Shown here one piece after another: positions 14,733 through 50,227 of a DNA stretch of 64,000 nt (positions are counted from its first letter, which is position 1; the number at the start of each line of letters is the position of its first letter). The translations under genes and the position numbers were made by a program. The stretch comes from Thermoleophilaceae bacterium (lineage in GTDB: Bacteria > Actinomycetota > Thermoleophilia > Solirubrobacterales > Thermoleophilaceae). The stretch covers positions 1,833 through 65,832 of the forward strand of contig DATBKS010000246.1 in the NCBI GenBank assembly GCA_036555755.1, read 5' to 3'. Below the pieces are notes generated by a model that saw only the letters and a program-made list of their open reading frames with translations, was not told the origin of the DNA and searched no databases.

Positions 14733-15240
<508 letters not shown>

Positions 15241-15244
<4 letters not shown>

Positions 15245-17601: not shown

Positions 17602-18254
17602 CGGTACCTGATCTCGAGCCACACCCCGCGCCGCCGGAAGCGCTTGCCGAACAGCAGCGCGAGCAGAAGCGCCAGCAGTCCGGCGGCGCCGGCCCGGGCG
17701 AGCGGAGTGGGCACCGAGGGCACGGACGGAGCAGCCGGATGTTCCTCTTCCGGCAGGGACGCCGGAGGCCTGGACGGGAGCGCGGCGGCGGCGGGCTGTG
17801 GCACACGGGAAGCGCGCTCGCCAAGGCTGCGCTCCAGGTTGGTCGCGAGCTCTCCGAGCAGGCGCTCTGCCTCGGCGCGCGCGCTGTCCTCCGACACGCC
17901 GGTCGCGGCCAGCCGGCCGTCGAGCGTGAGCGACACGCGGGCCGCGCCATTCGAGCCGTCGACGCGAGCCCTCAACAGCCCGCTGGCGAATCCCGGCCCC
18001 GCGGCGTCGCGCACGCGCAGCAGGCAGCTCGCGCTGTGGCCGTCCTCGTCGACATCGACGGAGCGCAGCGTGCCAACGAGATCGAGCGGCGTGGAGCCGA
18101 CGGTGGGCGTGAGCTTGCCCTGCAGTGTCTGATCGCCGTTGACGCGGGCGAGCGCGGAACCCGGCAGGCATGCGCCCAGCTGCTCCAGGTCGAGCAGCTC
18201 CGCCCAGACCCGGTCGGCCGGCGCGCTAACGGTGAATTCGGTCTCGAGGAGCAT
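17595..18254 (-). CDS. CoxG-like SRPBCC protein with C-terminal TM anchor, copy 1
   Basis: 219 aa. N-terminus MLLETEFTVSAPADRVWAELLDLEQLGACLPG, then a Pro/Ala linker, then the hydrophobic tail AGAAGLLALLLALLFG followed by basic residues. AGGAGG RBS. Confidence 0.85.
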   Translation of the reverse strand: MLLETEFTVSAPADRVWAELLDLEQLGACLPGSALARVNGDQTLQGKLTPTVGSTPLDLVGTLRSVDVDEDGHSASCLLRVRDAAGPGFASGLLRARVDGSNGAARVSLTLDGRLAATGVSEDSARAEAERLLGELATNLERSLGERASRVPQPAAAALPSRPPASLPEEEHPAAPSVPSVPTPLARAGAAGLLALLLALLFGKRFRRRGVWLEIRYRW

Positions 18255-18362: not shown

Positions 18363-19025
18363 ATGAAGCTTCAGAACGAGTTCACGGTGGGTGTCCCGAT
18401 CGAGCGTGCGTGGGAGACGCTGCTCGACATCGAGACCGTGGCCGGCTTCCTGCCCGGCGCGAAGATCGAGCCGGCGGACGGCGACGGCGTCTTCCGCGGG
18501 TCGATGAAGGTGAAGGTCGGCCCGATGACGGTGAACTACGAAGGCACGGCCCGCCTCGCTGCCGTCGACGAGGCGAACCGCACCGCGGACATCGAGGTGC
18601 GCGCCAAGGAGGCCAAGGGCCAGGGCACCGCGGCAGCAGTGATTCGCAACCAGCTCGTTGCGGAGGCCGGCGGCACCCGCGTGGTGGCCGAGACCGACCT
18701 CCAGGTCACCGGCCGCCAGGCGCAGTTCGGCCGCGGGATCATGCAGGACGTGGCCGGGCGGATGCTCGGCGACTTCGCGCGCCGCTTCGAGGCCTACCTG
18801 AGCGAGCCGGCCGAGGCGCCGAACGGAGGCGCGCCCGCTCAGGCGCCGCCGCCCCCGCCCGAGTCGGAGGAGGCTCTCGACCTCGGCTCGGTGGTCACCC
18901 AGATGCCGGTCGTGCGCTACGGCGCCCCCGTGGCGGCGGGCGTGGTGGTCGTGGCAGCGCTCGTCGGAATGAAGCGCGCACGCGGCCGCCGCGGACTGAC
19001 CATCCGCATGGGCATCGGTCTCTAG
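18363..19025 (+). CDS. CoxG-like SRPBCC protein with C-terminal TM anchor, copy 2
   Basis: Starts at Met271 of track ORF 17553..19025. N-terminus MKLQNEFTVGVPIERAWETLLDIETVAGFLPG, then a Pro-rich linker, then the tail APVAAGVVVVAALVGMKRARGRRG. Confidence 0.85.
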   Translation: MKLQNEFTVGVPIERAWETLLDIETVAGFLPGAKIEPADGDGVFRGSMKVKVGPMTVNYEGTARLAAVDEANRTADIEVRAKEAKGQGTAAAVIRNQLVAEAGGTRVVAETDLQVTGRQAQFGRGIMQDVAGRMLGDFARRFEAYLSEPAEAPNGGAPAQAPPPPPESEEALDLGSVVTQMPVVRYGAPVAAGVVVVAALVGMKRARGRRGLTIRMGIGL

Positions 19026-20290
19026 CGCCCGGCGCACATCGCAAGCGCGGTGAGCGCGTAGACGCGTGAGGCGCGCAGCAGGTCCTCCTTGCGCACGGCG
19101 AACGTGCCGGCGCCGGCGACCCCCGGCGGGCCGTAGGTGAGCGACGGGATGCCCGCCTCGTTGAAGACGTTGTGGTCGCGCCACATGCTGCACTCGGGCG
19201 GCGTGGCTATCTCGCAGTCGGCGTCGAACTCGAAGCGGTGGGCCTCGTCGACCGCGTCCGAGAGCGGCTCGATGCCCTTGGCCTCATAGCCCGGCCGGTC
19301 GACGAACTGCTCGACCGATCCCTCGAGGCCCAGTTCGTCGAGCAGCTCGCGCAGCTCGTGGCCGATCGCGCCGCCGTCCTGCCCGGGCACGGTGCGGATG
19401 TCCAGGTACAGCATGCAGACCTCGGGGTTCTGAAGCACGAGCCAGGGCTGCCCGCCGCGAATCGCGGATACGTTCACCCGCGGTACCACCGTGCCGCCCG
19501 GCGACTCGTAGGTATGCCGCTGCTCGTACTCGAGCGCCCACTCCTCGAGCCGCTCGATCAGCGGCAGCGCGCGCACGATCGCGTTGGGGTGCTCGCCCGG
19601 CGGGTAGGGACGGCTGACGTATGGCGTGTACAGCACGGGGCCGCCGTACACGGTGATCTTGTAGAAGGCCTTGCCGGCCTCGATCCAGCCCTTGCGGAAC
19701 GCGGTCGCCTCCGCGCATACGCAGAAGCCGGCGCGCGGCGTGTGGTTGACGAGATAGCGCGCGCCGACCTCCTTGCTGAGGTAGCGCTTGCCCTGAAACT
19801 CGTCGACGGGCTCCTGGCCGATCTCGCCGGGGACCATCGTGAGGTAGATGCTGCCGCGAAGCTTTACGCCGGCATCGCGGATCGCGGTGGCGGCCAGCAT
19901 CCAGGCGGCCATCGGTCCCTTGTCGTTCACGATCGGGTTGCCGACCAGAAGCTCGCCGTCCTCGCGGCCGAGGTGGAAGTCGTCGTCGCCCGGATCGCGC
20001 CAGATCAGATGGTCGTCGCGGCGCATCCAGGTGTCGATATGGCTGTTGAAGGCGAGCGCCGGACCCTCCCCGCTGCCGGGCAGCTCCGCGAACACGTTGA
20101 AGCGGTCCTCGAACATGCCGACGCGCCGCGGCGAATAACCGTTGTCCGCCAGCCACTGGTAGATCAGCTCAGCGCCCTCGCCCTCCCCTCCGGGCGGCGC
20201 CTCGACGCTCGTGATGTGGAGCGCGAGCTCGACCAGGTCGCGCTCCGTGATGCGCTCGAGGACGGCGTCCGCCACCTGGGCATCGATCAT
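19022..20290 (-). CDS. M20-family metallopeptidase/deacylase, copy 1
   Basis: Starts at Met23 of track ORF 19022..20356, in an ATGA overlap with the upstream stop. Motifs ALAFNSHIDT and NDKGPMAAW. Clear paralogue of 47596..48864. Confidence 0.85.
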   Translation of the reverse strand: MIDAQVADAVLERITERDLVELALHITSVEAPPGGEGEGAELIYQWLADNGYSPRRVGMFEDRFNVFAELPGSGEGPALAFNSHIDTWMRRDDHLIWRDPGDDDFHLGREDGELLVGNPIVNDKGPMAAWMLAATAIRDAGVKLRGSIYLTMVPGEIGQEPVDEFQGKRYLSKEVGARYLVNHTPRAGFCVCAEATAFRKGWIEAGKAFYKITVYGGPVLYTPYVSRPYPPGEHPNAIVRALPLIERLEEWALEYEQRHTYESPGGTVVPRVNVSAIRGGQPWLVLQNPEVCMLYLDIRTVPGQDGGAIGHELRELLDELGLEGSVEQFVDRPGYEAKGIEPLSDAVDEAHRFEFDADCEIATPPECSMWRDHNVFNEAGIPSLTYGPPGVAGAGTFAVRKEDLLRASRVYALTALAMCAGR

Positions 20291-21744
20291 GCCGGCGTCC
20301 CCTTCTTGAACACGTGGCCCTTCGTGTGGTCGTCGGGCCAGAAGCGCTCGTCCCATTCGCGCGACAGCTCGACGAAGCGCGGCGCCTCCTTCTGCATCGC
20401 GCGCAGGATCGCCGGCTCGTCCATCGTCTTGACCTCGCCCCCGCGCACCACCACGCGCCCGTCTACGAGCACCGTGTGCACAAGGTTGCCGCTGCCGGAG
20501 TAGACGAGGTTCGCCAGCAGGTTGTCCTCGTGCCAGGGCACCATCTCCGGCCGCATCAGGTCGAGCACGATCACGTCGGCGCGCTTGCCGGGCTCGAGCG
20601 TGCCGATCTCGTCCTCGAGCAGCATCGCCTTGGCCGAGCCGATGGTGGCCAGCTCAAGCGCCTCGTACGGCGAGATCAGCGTCCAGTCGAGCCGCGCCTC
20701 CTTGTGGCCGGTCGCGGCCAGATGCACCTCGCGGAACATGTCGAGGAAGCACGCCGCGGCGGGGCCGTCCGTGCCCAGTCCGACGGTGGCGCCCCCAGCC
20801 ATCAGCTCGGGGAAGCGGCCCTTGGTGAAGGCGCCGTAGGCGCCCTTCATGCTCGCGCTCGGGCAGTGGATGGCCGCCGCGCCGGTCTCCATCAGCAGCT
20901 CGACCTCGTTCTCGCTGAGCCACGCCATGTGCGTGCCGGCGAAGCGGCGGTTGAGGATGCCGAGCGAGTTGAAGCGCTCGATCGGGCGCGTGCCGAAGCG
21001 CAGGTCGTGCGCCTCGATGTCCTCGCGGTCGACGTTGGAGTGGGTCACCACGCCGACGTTGAAGCGCTCCGCCAGCGCCATCGCGCCCTCGCACAGCTCG
21101 TCCGAGGAGGACGTCACCTGGATCGGGCACGGCCATGCGCGGACGCGCCCGTCCGCGGCGCCGTCGAACTTGGCGATGAAGCTCTCCGCGTGCTCGAGGT
21201 TCTCCTTCGTGACCTTGTCGGAGCGGCTCAGGAACTCGGCGAGGTCGTCCTGGACGTCGGCCATCGCGCGCGCCAAGACGGCGCGGATGCCGGCGGTCTC
21301 GACGCCGTGCACCGCGGCCTCCTCGAGCTCCTGGTAGGTGCCGCAGTCGAGGAACGCGGTGGTGCCGGTCTTGAGCATCTCGATGCTCGTGAACTGGGTG
21401 CCGAGGTAGTAGTTGTCCGGGTTCAGGCCCTTGGACGTGACGTAGAACTTCTTCTGGATCCAGGGCGTGAACGAGAGGTCGTTCACGAGCCCGCGGGCGA
21501 ACGCGCCGAACAGATGCATGTGCGTGTTCACGAGGCCCGGCATCACGAGCTGGTCGCGCGCGTCGATCGTCTTGCGGGCGGCGTACGTGCGGCGCAAGTC
21601 GGCGGTCGAGCCCGTGGCGACGATCCGTCCGCCGTCGATCGCCAGCGCGCCGTCCCAGAGCAGGTCTCTCTCGCCGGTCATCGGCAGCACGACGCCGTGC
21701 TCGATCAGCAGGTCGATCTGCTGGGGTTGTTCGCTGTCAGGCAT
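20287..21744 (-). CDS. Amidohydrolase-superfamily deaminase/chlorohydrolase-like enzyme (TRZ/ATZ, SsnA, guanine-deaminase-like group)
   Basis: 485 aa. Metal motif PGLVNTHMHL. Typical N-terminus LLIEHGVVLPMTGERDLLWDGALAIDGGRIVATG. Confidence 0.85.
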   Translation of the reverse strand: MPDSEQPQQIDLLIEHGVVLPMTGERDLLWDGALAIDGGRIVATGSTADLRRTYAARKTIDARDQLVMPGLVNTHMHLFGAFARGLVNDLSFTPWIQKKFYVTSKGLNPDNYYLGTQFTSIEMLKTGTTAFLDCGTYQELEEAAVHGVETAGIRAVLARAMADVQDDLAEFLSRSDKVTKENLEHAESFIAKFDGAADGRVRAWPCPIQVTSSSDELCEGAMALAERFNVGVVTHSNVDREDIEAHDLRFGTRPIERFNSLGILNRRFAGTHMAWLSENEVELLMETGAAAIHCPSASMKGAYGAFTKGRFPELMAGGATVGLGTDGPAAACFLDMFREVHLAATGHKEARLDWTLISPYEALELATIGSAKAMLLEDEIGTLEPGKRADVIVLDLMRPEMVPWHEDNLLANLVYSGSGNLVHTVLVDGRVVVRGGEVKTMDEPAILRAMQKEAPRFVELSREWDERFWPDDHTKGHVFKKGTPA

Positions 21745-22993
21745 TGGTGACCTCCGGACGGTGGTGAAGGTTGCTCTCGAGGCGGCTCTCGGCCATCAGG
21801 CGGCCGCCGTAGAAGACGAGTCGCCGAGGCGGCACGAGGCGTAGCGCCTCGCGCACGCTGGACGCGTCGATGACGACGAGGTCGGCGCGGTCGCCGGGCT
21901 CGATGCCGTAGCCCTCGAGCCGCATGGCGCGCGCGGCGTTGTAGGTGATCATGTCGAAGACCGTCTCGAGCTCCGGCAGGTAGGTGAGCTGGGCGACGTG
22001 GGCCGTGTACTGGCCCACCTCGATCTGGTCCGGCTTGCCGAACGGGTAGTAGGGGTCGTTCACGTCGTCCTGCGCGGACAGCACGTTAACGCCGGCGTCG
22101 AGCAACTCGCGCACGCGCGTGATCCCGCGCCGCACGAGGCCGCGGTCGGCGCGCCCGTCGAGCACCAGGCTGATCTGGGTGTTCGAGGCGATCGAGATCT
22201 CGGCGTCCTTCACGTAACCGATCACCCGCGCCGCGTGGTTGTCGTCATAGGCGGCGAGCGCCCCGCAGTGGCTCGCGGTGACGCGTCCCTGGTAACCCTC
22301 CTCGATGGTCCGCACGGCGAGGTACTCGAGGCTGCGCGACAGCGGATCGTCGGTGTCGTCCGCGAGCATGTGAATGTCCTTGCCGGTGCGCTTCGCGAGC
22401 TCGAGGCAGAAGTCGATGTGCTCGCGCACGTGGCGGTCGAGCCGCTCGTACCAGGGCAGGCCGCCGACGACGTCGCAGCCGAGGTCCATCGCCTGCTCCA
22501 TCAGCTTGTCGCACCCCGGGTTGCGCACGATGGCCTCCTGCGGGAAGGCGACGACCTCGAAGGTGATCAGGCCCTCGAAGCGGCGCTTCAGCTCGAGCAG
22601 GCCCTCGACCGGCACGAGCCCGCCGATCGTGTCCACGTCCGCGAAGCCGCGCATCGCCGTGGTGCCGTTGACGATCGCCGCCTCGATCACCGGCGACGCC
22701 CGGTCGGCGATCTCCTGCGCCGTGTAGGAGCGCTTGTGGTCCCAGGTGATCTCGATCGCCTCCTGGAGCGTCTGCGACTCGTTCTGGCGCATCACGTCGC
22801 CGAGCATGCACTTGTCGAGATGCTGGTGGGCATTGATCAGCCCGGGCACGAGCAGGCCGCCGCCACCGTCGTGCTCGGCGTCCGCGGAGTCGTCGATCGA
22901 CTGCTCGATCGCGGCGATCCGATCTTCTTCGAGGGCGACGTCGAAGGAGCCTTCGCGGCCGCGCAGCCGCACGTTTCGGATGATCTGCTTCAA
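21737..22993 (-). CDS. Cytosine-deaminase-like amidohydrolase (CodA/AtzC-like)
   Basis: Last 418 codons of track ORF 21737..24658. The TTG start forms a TTGA overlap with the paralogue B stop, with AAGGAG 9 nt upstream. Motifs PGLINAHQHLDK and DIHMLADDTDDP. Confidence 0.85.
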   Translation of the reverse strand: MKQIIRNVRLRGREGSFDVALEEDRIAAIEQSIDDSADAEHDGGGGLLVPGLINAHQHLDKCMLGDVMRQNESQTLQEAIEITWDHKRSYTAQEIADRASPVIEAAIVNGTTAMRGFADVDTIGGLVPVEGLLELKRRFEGLITFEVVAFPQEAIVRNPGCDKLMEQAMDLGCDVVGGLPWYERLDRHVREHIDFCLELAKRTGKDIHMLADDTDDPLSRSLEYLAVRTIEEGYQGRVTASHCGALAAYDDNHAARVIGYVKDAEISIASNTQISLVLDGRADRGLVRRGITRVRELLDAGVNVLSAQDDVNDPYYPFGKPDQIEVGQYTAHVAQLTYLPELETVFDMITYNAARAMRLEGYGIEPGDRADLVVIDASSVREALRLVPPRRLVFYGGRLMAESRLESNLHHRPEVTNA

Positions 22994-25290
22994 GAGTCGG
23001 TCACTCCTTTGTTCTTTGAGTCGCCTCCCACGAGGGCTAGCAGCGCGTCGGGGGTGAGCGGCAGGCGGCTGAGGACGCGGTCGTCGCCAAGGGCGTCCGC
23101 CACGGCGTTTGCGATCGCCGCGCCGGAGCCGACGATCCCGCCCTCGCCAGCGGCCTTCGCCCCGAGCGGGTTGGCGGTGGACTCGTCCCAGTGGGGCAGG
23201 TCGAGCTGCACGGTGTCGACGCGCGGCACCTCCGCTGCGGTCGGCATCAGGTAGTCCATGAACGAGGTCGCGAGCGGCTGCCCCGCGGCGTCGTAGGCGA
23301 GGTCTTCGAATAGCGCGCCGCCGACCCCCTGTGCGGCGCCGCCGACGAGCTGTCCATCGACGAGCTGCGGGTTCAGCGCCTGGCCGATGTCCTGGCAAAC
23401 GAGGATGCGGGTCACCGAGACGGCGCCGGTGTCGGCGTCCACCGCCACCTGCGCGAGGCACGCGCCCATGTCGAAGCTCGGGAGCGGCTTGTCGAAGCGG
23501 TGATGCCCGGTGCAGCCGAGCTCGGCGATCGGGATGCCGCGGCTCGGGTTGCCGCGCGGGTGCACCACGGCGCCGGGTCCGAACTCGAGGTCGCTCTCCG
23601 CGATCTCCAGACGGTCCGCGGCGGCGGTGAGCGCCTTGCGCTTGAGATCCGTCGCCGCGCCCACCACCGCGCCGCCCCCGATGATCGTCGTGCGGCTCGC
23701 ATACGCGCCGAAGCCCTGCGGCACGAGATCGGTGTCCCGGTGGCTGATCTCCACCTCCTCGATGTCCACCTGGAGGTGGTCGGCCACCACTTGTGCGAGC
23801 GCGGTGCGCACGCCCTGGCCGAGCGATGCGATCCCGACGTGCGCCACCCAGCCACCGGCCTCCCCCGGGACAATCCAGGCGTACTCGTGGCGCCCGAACG
23901 CCGTCTCCTCGACGTAGGCGGCCATGCCGATGCCCACCAGCTCGCCGCGGGAGCGACGCTCCGCGGTCTCGGCCCGCAGCTGCTCGTAGGAGCTCTGCGC
24001 GAGCAGGGTCGACACGACCTGCGGGAAGTCGCCGTTGTCGTAGATCACCGGCGGCTGGATGTCGCTCAGCTCCATGCGGTATGGCATCGCGTCGGCCCGG
24101 ATGAGGTTCTGCGAGCGCACCTGAGCCGGGTCGAGCTCGAGCGCACACGCCAGGCGGTCGACCATCCGCTCCCTGAAGAAGGCGGCCTCGTACTGGCAGG
24201 GCGCTCGGTAGGTGCCCGACGGCGTCTTGTTGGTGAGAACGCTGCGGGCCTCGATCTCGAGCCCCTCCCATACGTACGGGCCGGCCAGGTGGTGGACCAG
24301 CACCCACGGGAGGAGGAGAGTGCCGTGGGTGCGGGCGTATGCCCCCTGGTCCACCAGGCACGACGCGCGGAAGCCAAGCAACCGACCGCTCGTTGTCGCA
24401 CCGATCTCGAAGTCGCACCACGTCTCGCGGGAGTGGTTGATGGCCACGAAGTGCTCGTGCCGATCCTCCACCCACTTGACCGGACGGCTGAGCTGCATGG
24501 CGAGCCACGGCACGAGGAAGTCCTCCGGGTAGAACTCCCCGCGAGCGCCGAAGCCGCCGCCCACGTCCGGCTCGACGAAGCGGACGGCCTCCTCGTCGAG
24601 ACCCAGGAAGCCGGCGAGCAGCGTGCGGTTGAAGTGCTTGACCTTCGTGGGGCCCCACACGGTCAGGCGCCGCGTGCCTGGGTTGAACTCGGCGAGCAGG
24701 CCGCGCGTCTCGAGCGGGATGGCGGCGTGGCGCTGGATGCGCAGGCGGTCGCGGACCACGACGTCCGCCGCGCTGAGCAGCTCGTCTACGTCGCGCCCCC
24801 AGCGCGAGCGGAGCGTGTTCACGACGTTGCCGGTGAGCGCGTCCGCGTGTAGCGCCGGCGCGTCGCCGCGCCCGGCGCTCGGGCCGTCGAGCAGTGGCTC
24901 GATGCCCTCGATCTCAACCTCCACGTCCTCCACGGCGTCCTCCGCCGTGTACGGATCCTCGGCCAGCACCACCGCCAGCGGCTCGCCGACGTAGCGCACG
25001 AGTCCGCGCGCGAGCGGCGGCTGCGTGACCGGCACCGCCTCGTCGGAGGGCATCATGCGGACGGGGATCCGGATGTCGGGGATGTCGTCGGCCGTGATCA
25101 CACCGACTACGCCGGGATGACTGCGGGCGCGCTCGGTCCGGATCGCCACGATGCGCCCGTGGGCAACGTCGCTGCGCACGATGCGTGCGCTGAGCTGGCC
25201 GCCGCGGCCGAGGTCGTCGAGGAAGCTTCCGCGGCCTGTGAGCAGCGGACCGTCCTCGACGCGCGGCACCGACTGGCCGATGTACGTCAT
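22990..25290 (-). CDS. Mo-hydroxylase large subunit, paralogue B
   Basis: Last 766 codons of track ORF 22990..27489. N-terminus MTYIGQSVPRVEDGPLLTG. Motifs DVGGGFGARGEFYPEDF, GTYRAPCQ and GAKAAGEGG. ATGA overlap with the paralogue C stop. Confidence 0.9.
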   Translation of the reverse strand: MTYIGQSVPRVEDGPLLTGRGSFLDDLGRGGQLSARIVRSDVAHGRIVAIRTERARSHPGVVGVITADDIPDIRIPVRMMPSDEAVPVTQPPLARGLVRYVGEPLAVVLAEDPYTAEDAVEDVEVEIEGIEPLLDGPSAGRGDAPALHADALTGNVVNTLRSRWGRDVDELLSAADVVVRDRLRIQRHAAIPLETRGLLAEFNPGTRRLTVWGPTKVKHFNRTLLAGFLGLDEEAVRFVEPDVGGGFGARGEFYPEDFLVPWLAMQLSRPVKWVEDRHEHFVAINHSRETWCDFEIGATTSGRLLGFRASCLVDQGAYARTHGTLLLPWVLVHHLAGPYVWEGLEIEARSVLTNKTPSGTYRAPCQYEAAFFRERMVDRLACALELDPAQVRSQNLIRADAMPYRMELSDIQPPVIYDNGDFPQVVSTLLAQSSYEQLRAETAERRSRGELVGIGMAAYVEETAFGRHEYAWIVPGEAGGWVAHVGIASLGQGVRTALAQVVADHLQVDIEEVEISHRDTDLVPQGFGAYASRTTIIGGGAVVGAATDLKRKALTAAADRLEIAESDLEFGPGAVVHPRGNPSRGIPIAELGCTGHHRFDKPLPSFDMGACLAQVAVDADTGAVSVTRILVCQDIGQALNPQLVDGQLVGGAAQGVGGALFEDLAYDAAGQPLATSFMDYLMPTAAEVPRVDTVQLDLPHWDESTANPLGAKAAGEGGIVGSGAAIANAVADALGDDRVLSRLPLTPDALLALVGGDSKNKGVTDS

Positions 25291-27578
25291 TCGGACGCCG
25301 CCGCGAGTTCCTGAATGGTCTCCGGCATCAGCGGCAGCGACGCGATGTGGCGGCCCGGCGCCCCCAGCGCGTCGTGCACAGCGTTCGCGACGGTCGCCGC
25401 GGTGGCGATGATCCCGCCCTCGCCGCCACCCTTCGCGCCGGCAAGCGGGTCCGTGCTGCTCGTGTGCCCGAGCTCCACCAGCTGCACGAGCATGGGCGGC
25501 ATCTCGGCGGCCGTCGGCATCGCGTAGTCGAGGAAGCTCGTGGACAGCGGTTGCCCGTCGGGGGCGTAGGAGAACTCCTCGAACAGCGCGCCGGCGAAGC
25601 CCTGCACGGCGGCGCCCTGCACCTGGCCCTCGAGGGTCTGCGGGTTGATCGCCTTGCCAACCTCGTAGGCGATCGCGTAGTTCAGGAGCTTGATCTCGCC
25701 CGAGTCGCGGTCGACCTCGACCACGCCCACGTTCGCGCCCATGAGCACGTGCGAGCCGCCCTCCGGCTCGTAGCGGTAGAAGGCCTCGAGCCCGAGCTCG
25801 GAGAGCGGCACCTCGAGCTTGCGCGTGCCCTCCTCGGCCCGGGCCATCCCTCCCTCCACCGTCACGACCTCGGGCGGCGCTTCGAAGCGCTCGGCCGCGG
25901 CGTCGCGTGCGAGCTCGTACAGCTCCTTCACCGCGCCGGCGATCGCGTAGCCGCCCCAGACGGTCGCGCGGCTCGAGAAGGCGCCCTGGCCCTCGGGCAC
26001 CGTGGCCGTGTCCTGGTAGCGCACGGCCACCCGCTCGATCGGCACCCCGAGCAGGTCGGCGGCCACCTGCGAGAGCACCGTCTCGACACCCTGGCCCACC
26101 GACGCCACGCCCACATGCGCCGTGAACGTGCCGTCCGTCTCGGCCACGATGCGCGCCTGCTCGAACACGCCCGGGTTGCCCATCTCGATGAAGGCCGTGA
26201 CGCCGAGGCCGAGACATTCGCCCCGCGCCTTCCTCTCGTCCACATGCGCGCGCAGCTTCGAGTACTCCACCTTCTCGAGCAGTCCCTCGAACACGAGCGG
26301 GAAGTCGCCCTCGTCGTAGAACACGGGCTTGCCGGTGTCCACGTCCGGCAGGCCGCTGTTGTACGGCATGTCCTTCGGCGTGACGATGTTGCGACGGCGG
26401 AACTCCACTGGGTCCGCGCCCACCTGGCGAGCGACGATGTCCACCATGCGCTCGCGCACGAAGGTGGGCTCGTACTGGCCGGGGCCGCGGTAGGTGCCCG
26501 ACGGTGTCTTGTTGCTCAGCACGGTCATGGCGTCCGCCTCGTACGCCTGCCAGCGGTACGGGCCGGGCATGTGGTTGAGCATCAGCATCGGCAGCAGCAC
26601 GCTGCCGTGGGTGCGCGCGTAGGCGCCCTGGTTCCACCAGGCGTGGGCGCGGAAGCCGAGCAGCTCGCCGTCGTCGGCGGCGGCGTACTCCACGTCCCAT
26701 TCCTGCTCGCGCGAGTGGTTGAGGGCAATCAGGTTCTCGCGCCGGTCCTCCACCCACTTCACCGGCCGGCGCAGCTCGATCGCGAGCCAGGGGATCAGGT
26801 AGTCCTCGGGGTAGAACTCGCCGCGCGCGCCGAAGCCGCCGCCCACGTCGCCCTCGATGCAGCGGATCCGCTCCTCCGGGATCGCGAGCATGTCGGAGAG
26901 GATCTTGCGGTTGAAGTGCTTGACCTTGGCCGCGCCCCAAACGGTCACTCTCTCGGTCTCCTCGTCCCATTCCGCGAGCAGGCAGCGCGTCTCCATCGGC
27001 ACCGCGCCGTGGCGCTGCACGCGGAAGCGCTGGGTCACCACCACCGGCGCGTCCGCGAACAGCTCGTCGAGGCTGTCGGCATTGTGGCTCACGGCCACGC
27101 GATCGATCACGTTGGTGCCGATCTCGGGGTTTAGCAGCGCGGCGTCCGTGGCGCCCGCGGAGAGCGAGTCGAGCACCGGGGCAAGCGGCTCGATCTCCAC
27201 CCGCACGTCCTCGGCCGCGTCCTCGGCGATGTAGGAGCTGCTGGCCACCACCACCGCCACGGGATCGCCGACGTAGCGGACCCGGTCCCGCGCCAGCGGC
27301 GCCTGCAGAGCGCGCTCGGCGTTCTCGGTCGGGAACAAGCGGATCGGCACGTTGACCTCCGGCAGGTCGCGCGCGGTGATCACCCGAACGACGCCGGGGC
27401 GCTGCTCGGCCACCGAGGTGTCGATCTCCCGGACTATCCCGTGGCTCACGGGGCTCCGCACCACGTGGGCGTGAAGCTGGTTCTGGCACTCGAAATCCGC
27501 CCCGAAGCAGCCGGTTCCCGTGAGCAGCCTGTGATCTTCGACCCGTGGGATCGAACGCCCCACGTAGGCTGGCGTCAT
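25287..27578 (-). CDS. Mo-hydroxylase large subunit, paralogue C
   Basis: Track ORF, 763 aa. N-terminus MTPAYVGRSIPRVEDHRLLTG. Motifs DVGGGFGARGEFYPEDY, GTYRGPGQ and GAKGGGEGG. ATGA overlap with the paralogue D stop. Confidence 0.9.
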   Translation of the reverse strand: MTPAYVGRSIPRVEDHRLLTGTGCFGADFECQNQLHAHVVRSPVSHGIVREIDTSVAEQRPGVVRVITARDLPEVNVPIRLFPTENAERALQAPLARDRVRYVGDPVAVVVASSSYIAEDAAEDVRVEIEPLAPVLDSLSAGATDAALLNPEIGTNVIDRVAVSHNADSLDELFADAPVVVTQRFRVQRHGAVPMETRCLLAEWDEETERVTVWGAAKVKHFNRKILSDMLAIPEERIRCIEGDVGGGFGARGEFYPEDYLIPWLAIELRRPVKWVEDRRENLIALNHSREQEWDVEYAAADDGELLGFRAHAWWNQGAYARTHGSVLLPMLMLNHMPGPYRWQAYEADAMTVLSNKTPSGTYRGPGQYEPTFVRERMVDIVARQVGADPVEFRRRNIVTPKDMPYNSGLPDVDTGKPVFYDEGDFPLVFEGLLEKVEYSKLRAHVDERKARGECLGLGVTAFIEMGNPGVFEQARIVAETDGTFTAHVGVASVGQGVETVLSQVAADLLGVPIERVAVRYQDTATVPEGQGAFSSRATVWGGYAIAGAVKELYELARDAAAERFEAPPEVVTVEGGMARAEEGTRKLEVPLSELGLEAFYRYEPEGGSHVLMGANVGVVEVDRDSGEIKLLNYAIAYEVGKAINPQTLEGQVQGAAVQGFAGALFEEFSYAPDGQPLSTSFLDYAMPTAAEMPPMLVQLVELGHTSSTDPLAGAKGGGEGGIIATAATVANAVHDALGAPGRHIASLPLMPETIQELAAASE

Positions 27579-29965
27579 GCGGACCTCACCCCGTGCGGAG
27601 TATCCGTACCGGCCCGCGCTCCGTCATCGGGGGAAGACCGCCGTCCGGAGAGGGTATTCCCCTCCCCTGCCGCCGCTTTTATGAGCTCCGGAGTGAGCGG
27701 AAGGGCGTTCATCTCGACTCCCACGGCGTGTCCGACTGCGTTTGCGATCGCGGCGGGCGGGCCGAGCGTTCCTCCCTCGCCGACGCCCTTCGCGCCGTTC
27801 GGAGAGTCCGGCGACGGGATCTCCAGGTGGTGCAGCTCGATGTTCGGCAGCTCCATTGCGGTGGGCACCAGGTAGTCCATCAGCGAGGCCGTGAGCAGCT
27901 GCCCCTCCGGGTCGTAAACGAGCGACTCGTGTAGCGCCCCGCCGATCCCCTGCGCGACCGCTCCGTGCGCCTGGCCCTCGACGATCTGCGGGTTGATGAT
28001 CGTGCCGCAGTCCTCCGCAACGACGTAGCGCAGCAGGCGCAGCTCTCCCGTCTCCGGCAGTACCTCGACCTTGCAGGCATGCGTGGCGTAGGGGTAGACG
28101 GTGCGCTCGGGATCGAACAGGGCAGCGGAGCGCAGGCTGCCGTCGGTGTCCGCGGCGGCCAGCTCCGCGAGCGCCACCCCGCTGCTCGGCGAGCCGCGCA
28201 CGCTCACACGCCCCTCGACGAGCTCGAGGTCCTGGACCGCTGCCTCGAGGTGGTCGGCGGCGGCGTCGAACAGCCGCTCGCGCAGCTCGCCGGCCGCGGC
28301 CTTCACCGCCCCGCCCCCGCTCACGGCGCTGCGGCTCGCAAACGTCCCGGTGCCTCCGCCCTCGCCCGCGCCCGTGTCGGCGCGCGCGACCGACACGTTC
28401 TCCACGTCCATCCCCAGGGTGGCCGCGGCGAGCTGGGCGAACGTGGTCGCCACGCCCTGCCCGATCGCCGGGAGCGTGGTCCAGACGGTCACGCGGCCGT
28501 CCTCGCCCACCCGCATCCAGGCCCTGTCGTGCCCCGCGATCCCGACCATCCCGCGGCCGTGGAACACCTGCGATCCCATGCCCGTGTACTCGACGTACGA
28601 GGCGATCCCGAGGCCCAGCAGGCGCCCCTCGGCGCGGGCCGCTTCGCGCTCCGCCGGGAACGAGTCGTAGCCGATGGCCTCGAGCGCCCGCTCGAGCGCG
28701 AGCGGGTAGTCACCGCTGTCGTAGCGCTGATGGCTGACGCTCGTGTACGGCAGCTCTTCGGGCTGGACGTAGTTGCGACGGCGGATCTCGGCGCGGTCCA
28801 GGCCGAGCTCGGCGGCGAGCACATCCATCATGCGTTCGTGGACGAAGGCGGCCACCGGGAGGCCGACGCCCCGGTAGGCGCCCTCCGGGCTCTTGTTCGT
28901 ACAGATCGAACGCGTGCGCGCGCGGTAGTTCGACAGCCGGTACGGGCCGGGGATCATCGCCGGGGTGCCGAGCGCCTCGAGGATGTGGCCGTGCGGATAG
29001 ACGCCGTAGGCGCCGACGTCGCACACCACGTCGGCCTCGATCGCCAGGAGCCGGCCGTCGTCATCGGCGCCGGCGCGCACGCGCACCACCTGGTTGCGTG
29101 CGTGGCTCGAGGCCAGCAGATTCTCGCTGCGGTCTTCCACCCACTTGACCGGTCGGCCGAGCTCGAGCGCCAGCCACGCGGTGAGCACCTCCTCGGGATA
29201 CACATGCGCCTTCTGGCCGAAGCCTCCGCCCACGTCCATCGTGGAGACCCGCACCTGGTCGTCCCGCAGCCGGAGCAGCTCTGCCACGCAGGTCGCCAAC
29301 CGGTGCGGGATCTGGGTCGAGGCCCAGATGTGGACGCCGTCCCCCTCGGGCGCCGCCACCACCCCGCGATTCTCCATCGGCGTGGCGGAGTAGCGCGGCG
29401 AGTGGAATGTGCGCTCCACGATCGTCGTCGCGGTGTCGAACGCGGCGCCCACATCCCCCGCCTCGAGCACCGAGTCGAACAGGGTGTTGCTCGAGTGCGC
29501 ATGCATCGGCTCGGCCTCGCCCGCCGCGAGCGGGTCGACGAGCGCCGCCAGCGGGTCGAACTCGGCCTGCACGAGCTCCGCCGCGTCCTCCGCCGCATAC
29601 GGCGACTCGGCCGCGATCAGCGCCAGCGGCTCGCCCACGAAGCGCACCCGCTCGCGCGCCAGCAGCGGCCGCGGCGGCGAGAACGCGTCCGGGTTCTCCA
29701 CCGGTGGGTGCAGCGGCGGCAGGTCGAGGTCGGCCGCGGCGAACGCGGCCACGACGCCCGGGGCCGAGCGCGCCGCCGAGAGGTCGACCGATTCGATCCG
29801 GGCATGAGCGAGCGGGCTGCGGAAGAAGCGCGCGTGCAGCATCCGGTCGAATGCGAGGTCGTCCACAAACTCGGCCGCGCCCGTCAGCAGGGGGCGATCC
29901 TCCACTCGCAGCATGCGGCGTCCGATCGGACCCCTCACGGGTTGCTGCGTTACCGGAGCCGCCAT
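27575..29965 (-). CDS. Mo-hydroxylase large subunit, paralogue D
   Basis: Track ORF, 796 aa. N-terminus MAAPVTQQPVRGPIGRRMLRVEDRPLLTG. Motifs DVGGGFGQKAHVYPEE, GAYRGVG and GAKGVGEGG. There is no SD upstream of the ATG; TACCTT sits 6 nt upstream, which is a leaderless-type layout. Confidence 0.9.
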   Translation of the reverse strand: MAAPVTQQPVRGPIGRRMLRVEDRPLLTGAAEFVDDLAFDRMLHARFFRSPLAHARIESVDLSAARSAPGVVAAFAAADLDLPPLHPPVENPDAFSPPRPLLARERVRFVGEPLALIAAESPYAAEDAAELVQAEFDPLAALVDPLAAGEAEPMHAHSSNTLFDSVLEAGDVGAAFDTATTIVERTFHSPRYSATPMENRGVVAAPEGDGVHIWASTQIPHRLATCVAELLRLRDDQVRVSTMDVGGGFGQKAHVYPEEVLTAWLALELGRPVKWVEDRSENLLASSHARNQVVRVRAGADDDGRLLAIEADVVCDVGAYGVYPHGHILEALGTPAMIPGPYRLSNYRARTRSICTNKSPEGAYRGVGLPVAAFVHERMMDVLAAELGLDRAEIRRRNYVQPEELPYTSVSHQRYDSGDYPLALERALEAIGYDSFPAEREAARAEGRLLGLGIASYVEYTGMGSQVFHGRGMVGIAGHDRAWMRVGEDGRVTVWTTLPAIGQGVATTFAQLAAATLGMDVENVSVARADTGAGEGGGTGTFASRSAVSGGGAVKAAAGELRERLFDAAADHLEAAVQDLELVEGRVSVRGSPSSGVALAELAAADTDGSLRSAALFDPERTVYPYATHACKVEVLPETGELRLLRYVVAEDCGTIINPQIVEGQAHGAVAQGIGGALHESLVYDPEGQLLTASLMDYLVPTAMELPNIELHHLEIPSPDSPNGAKGVGEGGTLGPPAAIANAVGHAVGVEMNALPLTPELIKAAAGEGNTLSGRRSSPDDGARAGTDTPHGVRSA

Positions 29966-30013: not shown

Positions 30014-32347
30014 ATTCCCAGAGCTCGCTCACAAGATCACGAAGGCCGACCCCCCGCGAGCGATCTCCCGCGCCAGATCGGGCGCCGGCAGGCGCGTGTC
30101 GAGGATCGAGCGCTGCTCGAGGGCGATGCCCACTTCGTGGACGACCTCCCCGCCGACGGCGTGCTGCACCTCGCATTCGCCCGCAGCCAGCATGCACACG
30201 CGATCGTCCGGGGCGTCGAGCTGTCGGCCGCGGCCCGGATCCCGGGCGTGAGCCTCGCGTTCAGCGCCGAACAGCTGAACGGCGTCGGCGTGCTCGTGCC
30301 GACGCTCAAACGACCGGGCGCTGAGCGCGTCGAGCGGCCCGTGCTGGTTGGCGAACGCGCCCGCTTCGTAGGCGAGCCGGTGGCCGCCGTCGTGGCGAAG
30401 TCGCCCTATCTCGCCGAGGACGCCGCCGAGGCGGTTGCCATCGAGTACGAGCCGCTCGCCGCGATCGCCTCCATCGAGGACGCGCTCGATCCCGGCCTGC
30501 CGGCCCTGCACGGCAGCGGCAACGTGATCTTCCGCGAGGAATACGAGCAGGGCGACGTCGACTCGGCGCTCGCGTCCGCCGACATCGTGGTCGAGCGCAC
30601 GTTCCGCAACCCGCGCTATAGCGCGGCGCCGATGGAGAACCGCGGCGTGCTCGCAGTGCCCGACGGCAACGGCCTCCTGCTCTGGTCGGGCACGCAGATC
30701 CCGCACATCCTCGAGGAGACGCTGGCCGAGCTACTCGGCCTCGGGGGCAGGGTCCGTGTGCGCTGCCCGGACATCGGTGGCGGCTTCGGCCAGAAGGCGC
30801 ACGTCTTTCCCGAGGAGATCGCGGTCGGCTGGGCCGCGATGAAGCTCGGCCGCCCGGTCAAGTGGGTCGAGGATCGCCGGGAGAACCTGCTCGCGTCGGC
30901 GCACGCACGCGAGCAGCTGGTGCACGCCCGCGCCGCGGCCGACTCGAGCGGACGCCTGCTTGCGGTCGAGGCGGAGGTGTACTGCGACGTCGGCGCGTAC
31001 GGGATCTTCCCGTGGGGACAGCTGCTCGAGTCGCTCGGCACGGCCGCGATCCTCCCCGGCCCGTACGACCTCCGCAACTACCGCTACGTCACGCACGCGC
31101 TCGCGACCAACAAGGCGCCGCAGGGCGCCTACCGGGGCGTCGGGCTGCCGGTGGCGGCCTTCGTGCACGAGCGCCTGATGGACCTGCTGGCGGCCGAACT
31201 CGACATCGACCGCGGCGAGATCAGGCGCGCGAACTTCGTCCCGAGCGACCAGTTCCCCTACGCGACGGTCACGGGCCTCCGCTACGACAGCGGCAACTAC
31301 CGCGCGGCCCTCGACGCCGCCCTCGAGACGATCGGCTACGAGGGCTTCGACGAGCAGCGCGCCGCCGCGGCCCGCGAGGGCCGCCGGCTCGGGCTGGGCA
31401 TCGCCTCGTACGTCGAATGGACCGGCACGAACTCAAAGACCTACGCCACGCGCGGCATGAGCAACGTGCGTGGCTACGACGCCGGCCGGGTGGCGGTCAA
31501 CGAGGACGGCACGGTGTCGGTGTGGACGAGCTGTCCCGCGATCGGACAGGGCGTGGGCACAACCTTCGCTCAGATCGTCGCCGAGCACGTTGGGGTGCCG
31601 TTCGAGCTCGTCCGCACCGAACTCGTGGACACCGCCAACTCCCCGCCTGGCAGCGGCAGCTTTGCCAGCCGTAGCGCCATCAGCGCGGGCGGCGCGCTGA
31701 TCTCCGTCTCCGCGCAGGTTCGCGACCGCATCCTCAGGACCGGCGCGCGCGCGCTCGAGGCCAGCCCCGCCGACATGGTGATCCTCGACGGCCGCGTGGG
31801 CGTGCGCGGCTCGCCGACGGCGTCGCTGTCGCTGGCCGAGGTGGCCGCGGCAGCGGACCCGGGCTACCTCGACATCGGCGAGCCGTACGACCCGGAGGAG
31901 ACCGCGTACCCGTACGCCACGCACGCCTGCGTGGTCGAGGTCGACGAGGAGACCGGCCACATCGACATCCTGCGCTACGTGGTGGCCGAGGACTGCGGCC
32001 CGGAGATCAACCCGATCGTGGTCGAAGGGCAGGTGCACGGCGCCACCGCGCAGGGCATCGGCGGGACGCTGTTCGAGGCGCTCCGCTACGGCGAGGACGG
32101 GCAGGCCGTGACCGGGAGCTTCATGGACTACCTCGTGCCCACCGCCTGCGAGCTGCCCGCGATCAGCGTCCAGCACCTCGAGACGCCGGCGCCTGACCTG
32201 CGGGCGGGCTTCAAGGGAGTCGGCGAGGGCGGCACGCTGGCGCCACCCGGTGCACTCGCCAACGCTGTCTCGCACGCGCTCGGCGTGGAGATCAACGAGC
32301 TGCCGATCCACCCGGAGCTCGTGCTCCGCGCGCGGTCAGCCTCGTAG
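30014..32347 (+). CDS. Mo-hydroxylase large subunit, paralogue E (start codon uncertain, possibly ATT)
   Basis: Track ORF 30137..32347 starts at the first canonical start codon. The same frame, open from 29981, encodes the conserved family N-terminus QIGRRQARVEDRALLEGDAHFVDD upstream of 30137. ATT at ~30014 is preceded by AGAGGG at a 7-nt spacing. Motifs DIGGGFGQKAHVFPEE, GAYRGVG and GFKGVGEGG. Confidence 0.75.
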   Translation: MPRARSQDHEGRPPASDLPRQIGRRQARVEDRALLEGDAHFVDDLPADGVLHLAFARSQHAHAIVRGVELSAAARIPGVSLAFSAEQLNGVGVLVPTLKRPGAERVERPVLVGERARFVGEPVAAVVAKSPYLAEDAAEAVAIEYEPLAAIASIEDALDPGLPALHGSGNVIFREEYEQGDVDSALASADIVVERTFRNPRYSAAPMENRGVLAVPDGNGLLLWSGTQIPHILEETLAELLGLGGRVRVRCPDIGGGFGQKAHVFPEEIAVGWAAMKLGRPVKWVEDRRENLLASAHAREQLVHARAAADSSGRLLAVEAEVYCDVGAYGIFPWGQLLESLGTAAILPGPYDLRNYRYVTHALATNKAPQGAYRGVGLPVAAFVHERLMDLLAAELDIDRGEIRRANFVPSDQFPYATVTGLRYDSGNYRAALDAALETIGYEGFDEQRAAAAREGRRLGLGIASYVEWTGTNSKTYATRGMSNVRGYDAGRVAVNEDGTVSVWTSCPAIGQGVGTTFAQIVAEHVGVPFELVRTELVDTANSPPGSGSFASRSAISAGGALISVSAQVRDRILRTGARALEASPADMVILDGRVGVRGSPTASLSLAEVAAAADPGYLDIGEPYDPEETAYPYATHACVVEVDEETGHIDILRYVVAEDCGPEINPIVVEGQVHGATAQGIGGTLFEALRYGEDGQAVTGSFMDYLVPTACELPAISVQHLETPAPDLRAGFKGVGEGGTLAPPGALANAVSHALGVEINELPIHPELVLRARSAS

Positions 32348-34693
32348 GGCAGCCACCACCCAGTCGGGGGTGATCGGAGTGTGGTTCGCGACCACGCCGA
32401 CCGGCCGCAGCGCGTCGTTCACCGCGGACACGATCGCGGCAGGCGAATTCACCGCGCCGCCCTCCCCCATGCCCTTGAAGCCGCCAGGAACGAACGGCGT
32501 TGGCGACTCCAGGTGCTGGATCTCGACGTCCGGAAGCTCGCAGGCGGTGGGCACGAGGTAGTCCATGAAGCTGCCGGTGATCAGGTTGCCCGCGTCGTCA
32601 TACACGAGGTGCTCGTAGAGGGCGCCGCCGATGCCCTGGGCCACTCCGCCGTGCACCTGTCCCTCGACGATCATCGGGTTCACCACCGTGCCGCAGTCCT
32701 CGGAGACGACGTAGCGCAGCACGGTGACCGCACCGGTCTCGGGATCGAGCTCCACGTGGGCGGCGTGCGCAGAGCTCGCGAACGTGCCGGGGTCGGGCGG
32801 CACGAAGCGGCGCGTGGCCTCGAGCCCGGGCTCCTCGCCGTCGGGCAGCAGGTCCGGATCGAATGCGGCGCGCCGGGCGACCTCGCGGAAGGTCACGCCA
32901 CGGGACGGCGTGCCGCGCACGAAGATCGTGCCGTCCTCCAGCTCGAGGTCGCCGACGTTCGCCTCGAGCATGTCGGAGGCGAGGCGGAGCACCTTCTCCT
33001 TGATGTCCCGGGAGGCCAGGATCGTCGCGCCGCCACAGCAGATCGTGCTCCGGCTCGCCCAGGTGCCGAGGCCGTAGGGCACGAACTCGGTGTCGCCCCA
33101 CACCACCTCGACGTCCATGTGCGAGATGCCGAGCTCGCTCGCCGCGATCTGGGCGATCGTCGTCTCGTGGCCCTGGCCGTGGTTGTGGAGGCCGACCGCC
33201 ACGCGCACACGGCCGTCGGGCTCGACCCGAATCGCCGCGGAGTCGTAGCCCAGGGTCAGCTCGAGCTTGCGCGACGCAAGCGCCTGCGGACCGTAGGCGG
33301 ACTGCTCGACGGCGAGCGCGATGCCGAGCCCGCGATAGACGCCCTGCGCCCGCAGCTCCTCGTTCTCGGCACGCAGCTGCTTCCAGCCGATCGCGTCCTC
33401 GAGCAGATCGAGCATTCCGACGTAGTCCCCGCTCTCGAAGCGCAGGCCCACGGCCGTCGTGTAGGGAAACTCGCGCACGAGGTTGCGGCGCCGCACCTCA
33501 AGCGGATCGAGGCCGAGGCGGTCGGCAAGGTCGTCCATCGCCCGCTCCATCCCGAGGCACGCGATCACCCGCCCGACGCCGCGGTAGGGGCCCATCGGCG
33601 CCTTGTTCGTAACCACCGCGCGCACCTTGCGGCCGTAGGCCGGGATGTCGTAGGGACCGGTGACGTTCTCGGACGCCTGCCCCGAGTCGAGCGAGGCGCT
33701 GTAGGGCCAGGGCGCGTACGCGCCGTTGGCGGCGTAGAGCTCGCTCGACACCGCCGTCACCCGCCCGTCGCGCGTGGCAGCCGCCCGCAGCCGGTGCATC
33801 TGCTCGCGCCCGTGGGTGGTCGCGTGAAGATCCTCGGCACGGTCGCTCACCCACTTCACGGGGCGCTTCAGGAGCTTCGCCGCGGCGGCCACGGCAACGT
33901 CCTCCGGGTAGAGCACCACCTTGCAGCCGAAGCCTCCGCCCATGTCGGGAGCGATCACGCGCACCCTGTTTTCCGGCATGTCCAGGTGTTTGGCGAGACC
34001 GGTGCGCGCGATGTGCGGGATCTGGGTCGAGAGCCAGGCAGTCAGGTGCTGCGTCGACACGTCGTAGCTCGCGATCGCCACCCGCGCCTCCATCGGCACC
34101 GCGCAGTAGCGCTGCTGGCGGACCTCGACCTCCACCAGCTCGTCCGCGTCCTCGAAGGCGGTCTCGAGGTCAGCGGTCGCGGTCTCGAAACGGTTGAAGA
34201 GGTTGTCCGGCACCTCGTCGTGGATCGCGGGCGCGCCGTCGGCCAGCGCGTCCTCGATCGAGAGCACGGTCGGCAGATCCTCGTAGTGCACGTCGACAAG
34301 CTGAGCGGCGTCCTCGGCCCGGTAGCGGCTGTCGGCAACGACGAGCGCCACGGGCTCGCCTGCGAGCCGTACCTTGTCGTGCGCGAGGATCGGCATGTCG
34401 CACTCGCTGTAGCCGGGTGACCCGTTCTTCGCGCGCAGCGGCCGCGCAACCCCGTCGAGGTCGCCGGCCACGATCACGGCGGTCACCCCGGGCAAGGCCG
34501 CCGCAGCTGCGGCATCGATCCCGCGGATGAGCGCGTGCGCGCGGGTGCTGCGGACGAACGCGGCCTCGAGCAGGCCGGGCAGGGCGACGTCGCTGACGTA
34601 GCGGCCATGCCCGGTCACGAGTCGGGCGTCCTCCCGTCTGAGCACGCGTGCACCCAGCGCCCGCGGCGCCGCGGTACCGGGCTCGGCCTCCAT
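32336..34693 (-). CDS. Mo-hydroxylase large subunit, paralogue F
   Basis: Starts at Met197 of track ORF 32336..35281, in a TGATG 1-nt overlap with the permease stop. N-terminus MEAEPGTAAPRALGARVLRREDARLVTG. Motifs DMGGGFGCKVVLYPED, GPYRGVG and GFKGMGEGG. Confidence 0.9.
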   Translation of the reverse strand: MEAEPGTAAPRALGARVLRREDARLVTGHGRYVSDVALPGLLEAAFVRSTRAHALIRGIDAAAAAALPGVTAVIVAGDLDGVARPLRAKNGSPGYSECDMPILAHDKVRLAGEPVALVVADSRYRAEDAAQLVDVHYEDLPTVLSIEDALADGAPAIHDEVPDNLFNRFETATADLETAFEDADELVEVEVRQQRYCAVPMEARVAIASYDVSTQHLTAWLSTQIPHIARTGLAKHLDMPENRVRVIAPDMGGGFGCKVVLYPEDVAVAAAAKLLKRPVKWVSDRAEDLHATTHGREQMHRLRAAATRDGRVTAVSSELYAANGAYAPWPYSASLDSGQASENVTGPYDIPAYGRKVRAVVTNKAPMGPYRGVGRVIACLGMERAMDDLADRLGLDPLEVRRRNLVREFPYTTAVGLRFESGDYVGMLDLLEDAIGWKQLRAENEELRAQGVYRGLGIALAVEQSAYGPQALASRKLELTLGYDSAAIRVEPDGRVRVAVGLHNHGQGHETTIAQIAASELGISHMDVEVVWGDTEFVPYGLGTWASRSTICCGGATILASRDIKEKVLRLASDMLEANVGDLELEDGTIFVRGTPSRGVTFREVARRAAFDPDLLPDGEEPGLEATRRFVPPDPGTFASSAHAAHVELDPETGAVTVLRYVVSEDCGTVVNPMIVEGQVHGGVAQGIGGALYEHLVYDDAGNLITGSFMDYLVPTACELPDVEIQHLESPTPFVPGGFKGMGEGGAVNSPAAIVSAVNDALRPVGVVANHTPITPDWVVAALRG

Positions 34694-38482: not shown

Positions 38483-38517
38483 GCTCAGCTTCCCTCGATG
38501 AGACGCACACGAAAGCC

Positions 38518-50203: not shown

Positions 50204-50227
50204 GACGCGAGTCTCCTCCTCGGCGCA

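Follow-up and report, generated by a model that had tools for sequence, protein, structure and literature searches.

Molybdenum hydroxylases of the xanthine oxidase, or L-S-M, family combine a catalytic large subunit (L) that holds the molybdenum cofactor (Moco) with a small 2Fe-2S subunit (S) and an FAD subunit (M), and in the canonical layout the three genes share an operon, as the qorMSL genes of quinoline 2-oxidoreductase (Qor) from Pseudomonas putida 86 (PDB 1T3Q) do. Throughout the family electrons run from Moco over two [2Fe-2S] clusters to FAD, a chain described for the ketone (6-hydroxypseudooxynicotine) dehydrogenase Kdh of Paenarthrobacter nicotinovorans pAO1 (PDB 7DQX), whose holoenzyme structure with all three subunits has been solved (PMC8305194). 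From the archaeon Sulfolobus tokodaii, Wakagi et al. (2016) purified the glyceraldehyde oxidoreductases GAOR2 and GAOR3 (PDB 4ZOH), which contain the same M/S pair, STK05620/STK05610, and two distantly encoded L subunits; they proposed the M/S complex as an invariant scaffold on which the L subunit can vary (PMC4726530), so that one M/S pair serves different L subunits, which set substrate specificity. Here we consider a 64,000-nucleotide stretch of a Thermoleophilaceae bacterium (contig DATBKS010000246.1, positions 1,833 to 65,832; hereafter the window), in which three L genes, named D, C and B, lie in tandem. The arrangement of genes makes it likely that D, C and B each assemble separately with the same S and M subunits, encoded in other operons, and so form parallel L-S-M isoenzymes.

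The likeness to GAOR2/GAOR3 is one of family and of layout. Both C (E 1.2e-88) and D (E 4.9e-101) have 4zoh_A among their structural matches, and in both systems L genes lie away from an M/S operon that carries no L. The window holds six L genes (A to F), two S genes (S1 and S2) and one M gene, all within 50 kb. Five of the six L genes have neither S nor M beside them, A has S1 only, and the operon of M, S2 and the M20b hydrolase gene is without an L. The window thus has the layout of a shared M/S pair, with at least two L genes lacking adjacent M and S next to an L-less M/S operon, and the latter would have no function unless an L were supplied in trans. A permissive tblastn search of the window returned no S- or M-like sequence beyond S1, S2 and M. 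The archaeal system differs in oxidizing aldehydes and in drawing on two guest L subunits at separate loci, whereas the window is bacterial, has an N-heterocycle context, gathers six L genes in one cluster with three of them translationally coupled, and has S and M themselves split between operons. It is in this degree and setting that the novelty lies, the principle being already known. The initial annotation had offered a catalytic core of different L paralogues or interchangeable L modules docking on S and M subunits encoded elsewhere, and had held that neither was described biochemically; for docking on a shared M/S pair this was mistaken, as GAOR2/GAOR3 show (PMC4726530). Sharing was proven for those enzymes by co-purification, while for the window we infer physical sharing, along with substrates and electron acceptor, from the genes.

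Kdh provides a bacterial comparison. Its L subunit (7dqx_A) is the structure closest to C (E 1.5e-141), and the KdhL loop AYRAPG resembles TYRAPC in B and TYRGPG in C; homology to solved structures at E 1e-141 already settles the L fold. On pAO1, kdhC, the L gene, heads its own operon (kdhC-Dabb-cyclase-dhpH-SRPBCC-CN hydrolase), and 4.3 kb away lies a divergent kdhA-kdhB (M-S) operon that has no L; these two units resemble the A-S1-cyclase-cupin-C-N hydrolase and M-S2 units of the window. Unlike the window, however, Kdh has one L per M-S pair, and KdhL is only about 41% identical to its best match, A. In a neighbor-joining (NJ) tree of 150 L proteins KdhL groups with another subclade, that of the second L (L2) of M-L-S-L operons, and in the alignment the column of E345, one of its substrate-binding residues along with W551, is not conserved, so the L proteins of the window are not Kdh orthologues. 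D is closest to Qor (1t3q_B, E 7.8e-153), with which it shares an identical AYRGVG loop (Qor loop per PMC8305194) and the Gln conserved in the Mo-oxo column, but the M and S subunits of Qor are its own, whereas D has neither gene adjacent to it. Form I CO dehydrogenase (CoxMSL) has the same fold and cofactor chain, and CoxG-like genes lie near the L genes of the window. Even so, a CO dehydrogenase identity was rejected, because the AYRCSFR loop with its Cu-ligand Cys is absent from all six L proteins and TIGR02416 scores 374-597 bits against a cutoff of 991.

D, C and B lie head-to-tail, and translation agrees with the lengths and positions first reported for them (Table 1). The minus-strand junctions read GCATGACG for D/C and GAATGACG for C/B, bearing out an ATGA overlap at each. 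The three genes open a coupled unit that runs from 29965 to 19022 and comprises six genes in the order D-C-B-amidohydrolase-amidohydrolase-M20, with successive overlaps of 4, 4, 4, 8 and 4 bp. Pfam finds no S or M gene among the six, and the initial annotation was right on this point for the coupled unit, with S1, S2 and M, which it did not report, standing elsewhere in the window. Amidohydrolase 1 matches the NCBIfam cytosine deaminase subfamily below its cutoff, and its PDB matches include cytosine deaminase (1k6w, E 2.4e-66) and AtzC (E 1e-46); the last gene, M20a, is 45% identical to M20b. The G+C content of the window is about 70%, and a promoter and terminator scan of the D-C-B operon, which is uninformative for an actinobacterium of 70% G+C, gave no minus-strand sites.

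The L genes of this cluster appear to be distinct and intact. All six carry the Pfam trio of Ald_Xan_dh_C (hammerhead), MoCoBD_1 and MoCoBD_2 at near-complete coverage (E 1e-20 to 1e-89), and for D, C and B the matches span each profile in full (E 1e-24 to 1e-78). When aligned with KdhL and NdhL, all six are seen to keep the GGGFG Moco motif, the (A/T)YR active-site loop and the C-terminal catalytic Glu (motif roles as assigned in PMC8305194). For D, C and B in turn, the Moco motif reads GGGFGQK, GGGFGAR and GGGFGAR, the active-site loop AYRGVG, TYRGPG and TYRAPC, and the catalytic-Glu loop GVGEGG, GGGEGG and AAGEGG, in agreement with the earlier description of intact motifs and no CO-dehydrogenase loop. 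The division into A/B/C and D/E/F proposed there is reproduced by the tree and by pairwise identities, which are 45-48% within A/B/C, 44-57% within D/E/F and 34-41% across the groups. It extends to the active site: D, E and F have Qor-type loops (AYRGVG or PYRGVG) and Gln in the Mo-oxo column (Qor Q224), whereas A, B and C have Kdh-like loops (YRAPG, YRAPC or YRGPG) and Lys in that column, where the active KdhL differs again in having His. In C the residue is K218 (WGAAKVKHF), at the position where in Qor, CoxL, NdhL and D/E/F a Gln touches the apical Mo=O. This Lys is a trait of the whole A/B/C clade, including L genes in canonical S-M-L and L-M-S operons (L007 and L091).

In the NJ tree, which includes the characterized KdhL, A to F fall into six separate orthologous groups within Thermoleophilia, with the B clade sister to the C clade. 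D and E are 57% identical and B and C 47%, and the mutual identity of D, C and B is only 38-47%. Compared with L001, a relative of about 90% amino acid identity, dN/dS is 0.10 for B, 0.13 for C, 0.11 for D, 0.10 for E and 0.08 for F. These five genes are under purifying selection, and the six L genes are old paralogues, not recent duplicates. We predict D, C and B to be distinct and functional Moco subunits, set in a catabolic supercluster for aminated N-heterocycles in Thermoleophilia.

Relatives of the locus show how this arrangement varies. By source name the closest homologues come from Thermoleophilia, near Thermoleophilaceae and Solirubrobacteraceae. The context of C was read from homologues, and an exact-sequence look-up of C gave no match. 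In the single GTDB scan the best match had only 61% identity, and close synteny therefore rests on metagenome contigs. L001 keeps the order ABC transporter, F, E, D, C, B, amidohydrolase, amidohydrolase, M20, CoxG, CoxG, A, and its D (796 aa) and E (736 aa) orthologues equal those of the window in length. This conserved order, together with the dN/dS values of 0.08-0.13 for B to F, indicates that the D-C-B succession is not due to chance. Conservation of that succession, raised in the initial annotation as a point to check, is whole in L001, but L003 (69%) retains only C-B, with a 4-bp overlap, followed by an M20 gene orthologous to M20b (77% identity). C-like genes stand alone in L085 (67%), L086 (64%) and L087 (60%), in other amidohydrolase, cyclase or DUF1989 operons, and the 10 kb around them contain neither B nor S nor M. 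The order in L005 is C-amidohydrolase 1-D, and L011 has a solitary B-like gene.

A Conexibacter metagenome-assembled genome (L091), found by searching with M, has the order CoxG-like, C, M, S, amidohydrolase 1, amidohydrolase 2, CoxG, A-like L, cyclase, cupins, C-N hydrolase. Its C-like L is 65% identical to C, its M 66% identical to M and its S 79% identical to S1; the two amidohydrolases are each 83% identical to those of the window, the A-like L is 70% identical to A, and CoxG is 64% identical to CoxG-like protein 1. F holds the same position there and in L001 as in the window. The genes from C through M and S to the second amidohydrolase are all joined by 4-bp overlaps, and hence the operon of the window has as its orthologue a canonical L-M-S unit, the layout from which the D-C-B operon departs. 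The outgroup of the B+C clade (L007 and L008) is likewise found in ordinary S-M-L operons. In the lineage of the window, M and S have left the C operon, where D and B now flank C.

Further rearrangements involve the A operon and the neighborhood of M20b. The former occurs as A-M-S-cyclase (L010), as A-S-cyclase (the window) and as A-cyclase (L091, L003 and L085). Upstream of M20b lie M-S2 in the window, C-B in L003 (where the M20 gene is at 14568-15860) and M alone in L089 and L090, two loci that are otherwise syntenic with the window at 40-60 kb; in these, M is directly followed by M20b (in L089 at 10855-12144, 88% identical), with no L and no S, so that S2 is missing. Many split genes in L090 suggest sequencing errors there. 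Taken together, the variable A operon and M20b neighbors indicate that M and S genes move between operons of the cluster, and the M20b position seems to be a site where hydroxylase subunit genes get exchanged. S1 and S2 are 80% identical. Judging from gene order, the cluster would keep at least one M and at least one S despite these moves, with several L genes per genome lacking M and S genes of their own. In a census of 80 GTDB loci centered on the L clade of the window, 123 L genes were counted against 54 S and 55 M genes, an L excess of about 2.2 to 1, and 38 of the loci have at least two L genes.

Under the reading we favor, each L would dock in trans on a common M/S scaffold, giving a complex of its own, and the resulting isoenzymes would differ solely in the substrate pocket, with a different N-heterocycle or pathway intermediate for each L. 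Electrons would follow the family route from Moco through two [2Fe-2S] clusters to FAD, and then reach quinone, probably via the two CoxG-like proteins; CoxG has been reported to be the quinone-extracting partner of the Mo-dependent CO dehydrogenase (PMC12202499). The presence of two heterocycle deaminases and an M20 deacylase in the operon suggests one pathway in which D, C and B each hydroxylate another position of the ring or take intermediates in succession, and the operon partners point to aminated N-heterocycles, with pyrimidines, triazines, purines, pterins and pyridines among the candidate substrate classes. Between the two alternatives in the initial annotation, docking on S and M encoded elsewhere gains support from the L-less M-S2 pair and the A-S1 pair of the same cluster, the C-M-S operon of L091 and the mobility of M and S, whereas the lone C-like genes speak against a hetero-oligomeric core, which this model does not need. 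Stoichiometric production of the L modules, as put forward there, would follow from the ATGA coupling.

Several observations weigh against this interpretation. The window shows only 64 kb, and further S/M sets may lie elsewhere in the genome. One M per six L is a gene count and is silent on protein stoichiometry. Pfam scans of the window did not find the maturation genes XdhC/CoxF, MoxR/CoxD or VWA/CoxE. Finally, no L, S or M of the window reaches an NCBIfam equivalog cutoff, which leaves the substrates unassigned from sequence; by the same token, they need not be nicotine metabolites.

The limited view of the genome also bears on the best-surviving alternative, in which nothing is shared: each L would have a dedicated S and M outside the window, and S1, S2 and M would serve only A or one other L. 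Comparable genomes do encode many members of the family (12-29 COG1529 genes per genome in some Actinobacteria and Tectomicrobia; PMC8941161), and S1 is ATGA-coupled specifically to A. Yet M-S2 has no nearby L of its own, about 20 kb of homologous cluster in L091 contains four L genes against one M and one S, and 20-kb stretches of L003, L085 and L087 have two to four L genes and no S or M at all. The excess of L across the GTDB loci is likewise at odds with dedicated partners, and GAOR2/GAOR3 prove by biochemical precedent that sharing is possible in the L-S-M family. We consider this alternative unlikely.

A still less probable possibility, to which we would assign a small chance, is a hetero-oligomeric core, in which L-L' dimers mix C with B, or all three of D, C and B with one another, within a butterfly complex that has two different active sites per enzyme. 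ATGA coupling favors co-translational assembly of neighboring L genes, C and B are adjacent with a 4-bp overlap in three genomes spanning 69-100% identity, their clades are sisters, the L-L' interface is large in structures of the family (2077 Å2 in GAOR2), and operons that combine two different, co-diversifying L genes with a single M and a single S are widespread. However, C-like orthologues without a B or D neighbor in five relatives disfavor such a core: in L091 only C is joined to M and S, and L085, L086, L087 and L005 also have C-like genes outside the pairing. An obligate C/B heteromer was rejected on the grounds that C-like genes occur without B (L085-L087 and L091). The B-like gene of L011 is solitary, 27 bp lie between D and C in L001, and all characterized members of the family are L homodimers or monomeric in L (PMC4726530; PMC8305194). 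The two ideas could be combined, one M and one or two S subunits being common to all six L while the D-C-B trio forms mixed L-L' butterfly dimers, a combination we regard as a long shot. Such a particle, having two active sites that act on consecutive intermediates, might be a channeled multi-hydroxylase, and M-L1-S-L2 and L-M-S-L operons might represent this design in simpler form. The idea of D, C and B as redundant or decaying duplicates from a strain-specific tandem amplification, with some copies non-functional, has almost no probability in our view, for although one relative (L087) has a fragmented L gene, recent duplication or decay is effectively refuted by the low identity of the three, their separate orthologues in several genomes, the tree, the intact motifs, dN/dS of 0.10-0.13 and the conservation of the array in L001.

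The preferred model of separate isoenzymes on a common M/S scaffold has consequences for annotation. L genes of this kind are labeled 'CO dehydrogenase large subunit', and the complex is usually scored as present only if L, S and M occur side by side. Should it be routine for L subunits to borrow a common scaffold, then orphan L genes, which abound in soil Actinomycetota, Chloroflexota and sponge symbionts, would be working enzymes, and surveys of CO oxidizers and metabolic reconstructions should count them differently. The scaffold model has been demonstrated to date for two archaeal aldehyde oxidoreductases only, and the cluster described here offers a bacterial test bed with natural variants in its relatives. 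A common scaffold could also serve to swap catalytic modules for regioselective hydroxylation of heterocycles.

Table 1. Coordinates of the genes discussed, numbered from the first letter of the window.
Feature	Position	Strand	Basis
L paralogue D, Qor-like catalytic subunit, 796 aa, first gene of the operon	27575..29965	-	Pfam trio; QorL 1t3q_B closest structure
L paralogue C, Kdh-like clade, 763 aa, ATGA-coupled to D and B	25287..27578	-	Pfam trio; KdhL 7dqx_A closest structure
L paralogue B, 766 aa, in the clade sister to that of C	22990..25290	-	Pfam trio
Amidohydrolase 1, 418 aa, cytosine-deaminase/AtzC-like	21737..22993	-	Pfam Amidohydro_1/3
Amidohydrolase 2, 485 aa, TRZ/ATZ / 8-oxoguanine-deaminase-like	20287..21744	-	Profile matches; 83% identical to L091 orthologue
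M20a hydrolase, 422 aa, ArgE/DapE/YgeY-like, last gene of the operon	19022..20290	-	Profile matches
L paralogue A, Kdh-like clade, 767 aa	15241..17544	-	Pfam trio
S1, 2Fe-2S small subunit, 171 aa, ATGA-coupled to A	14729..15244	-	Pfam Fer2 and Fer2_2; both Cys motifs
L paralogue E, 736 aa, divergent from D, monocistronic	30137..32347	+	Pfam trio
L paralogue F, 769 aa, last in Bmp/PnrA-type ABC transporter operon	32336..34645	-	Pfam trio
M, sole FAD subunit in the window	49346..50239	-	Pfam FAD_binding_5 and CO_deh_flav_C
S2, 2Fe-2S small subunit, 162 aa, 4-bp overlap with M	48861..49349	-	Pfam
M20b hydrolase, downstream of M-S2	47596..48864	-	Pfam
CoxG-like SRPBCC protein 1	18363..19025	+	Pfam COXG, E 5.6e-15
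CoxG-like SRPBCC protein 2	17595..18254	-	Pfam COXG / Polyketide_cyc2
Cyclase-family, cupin, bicupin and C-N hydrolase genes, downstream of A-S1	12003..14732	-	Pfam
ABC transporter: Bmp/PnrA-like binding protein, ATPase, two permeases	34693..39753	-	Pfam
GAF-histidine kinase-receiver-LuxR hybrid regulator, divergent from M	50281..52515	+	Pfam

A gene map based on G+C at third codon positions (GC3), with Pfam scans on all of the approximately 50 genes, presents the window as one long catabolic cluster. Both CoxG-like genes are located between the D-C-B and A operons. The true start of M may sit about 12 codons inside its open reading frame (ORF), given that relatives are 284-286 aa long. By analogy, the genes downstream of A-S1 would form a module for ring cleavage and amide hydrolysis like that after kdhL on pAO1. 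The hybrid regulator, in which GAF, HisKA_3, HATPase, receiver and LuxR helix-turn-helix domains are joined in one 744-aa polypeptide, likely controls the cluster. It also adjoins M, divergently, in L089 and L090, and C-like L genes in L086 and L087.

One M and one S accompany two different full-length L genes in operons that are widespread across Actinomycetota and Alphaproteobacteria and common among the 80 GTDB loci; in the NJ tree their L1 and L2 form separate, co-diversifying clades. The M-L1-S-L2 form occurs in L057 (6305-12289), L066, L076, L052, L062, L059 and L051, and the L-M-S-L form in L012, L013, L016, L020, L021, L025, L039, L044 and L053. We found no characterized example of such a two-L, one-M, one-S operon; they could be either pairs that share a scaffold or heteromers. 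In L087, at 15929-17402, an L gene is split into a 181-aa (hammerhead) and a 304-aa (MoCoBD_1) piece, which reflects either a decayed paralogue or an assembly indel.

Other genes of the window extend its catabolic content. DUF1989, two tandem genes of the ADI/amidinotransferase fold, a short-chain dehydrogenase/reductase and hydantoinase A/B are grouped at 56648-64000, and a second DUF1989/Amidohydro_2/amidase set lies at 39990-44299; the two sets look like further catabolic modules for ureido or guanidino compounds around the hydroxylase genes. A 271-aa ORF at 9983-10798 on the minus strand, with a coding-like GC3 of 0.90 and no Pfam match, sits between the old yellow enzyme (OYE) and flavin-reductase genes of the A operon. 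On the same strand, 7244-9442 encodes a 732-aa protein in which an APH-type phosphotransferase domain is fused to a class-III aminotransferase. In a single minus-strand ORF at 1756-3906 a partial cytochrome P450 match precedes a PPDK_N ATP-grasp domain, and next to this ORF, at 3-1775 and also on the minus strand, lies an ORF that ends in a PEP-utilizers swivel domain; the pair represents an unusual fusion or else an artefact of gene calling.

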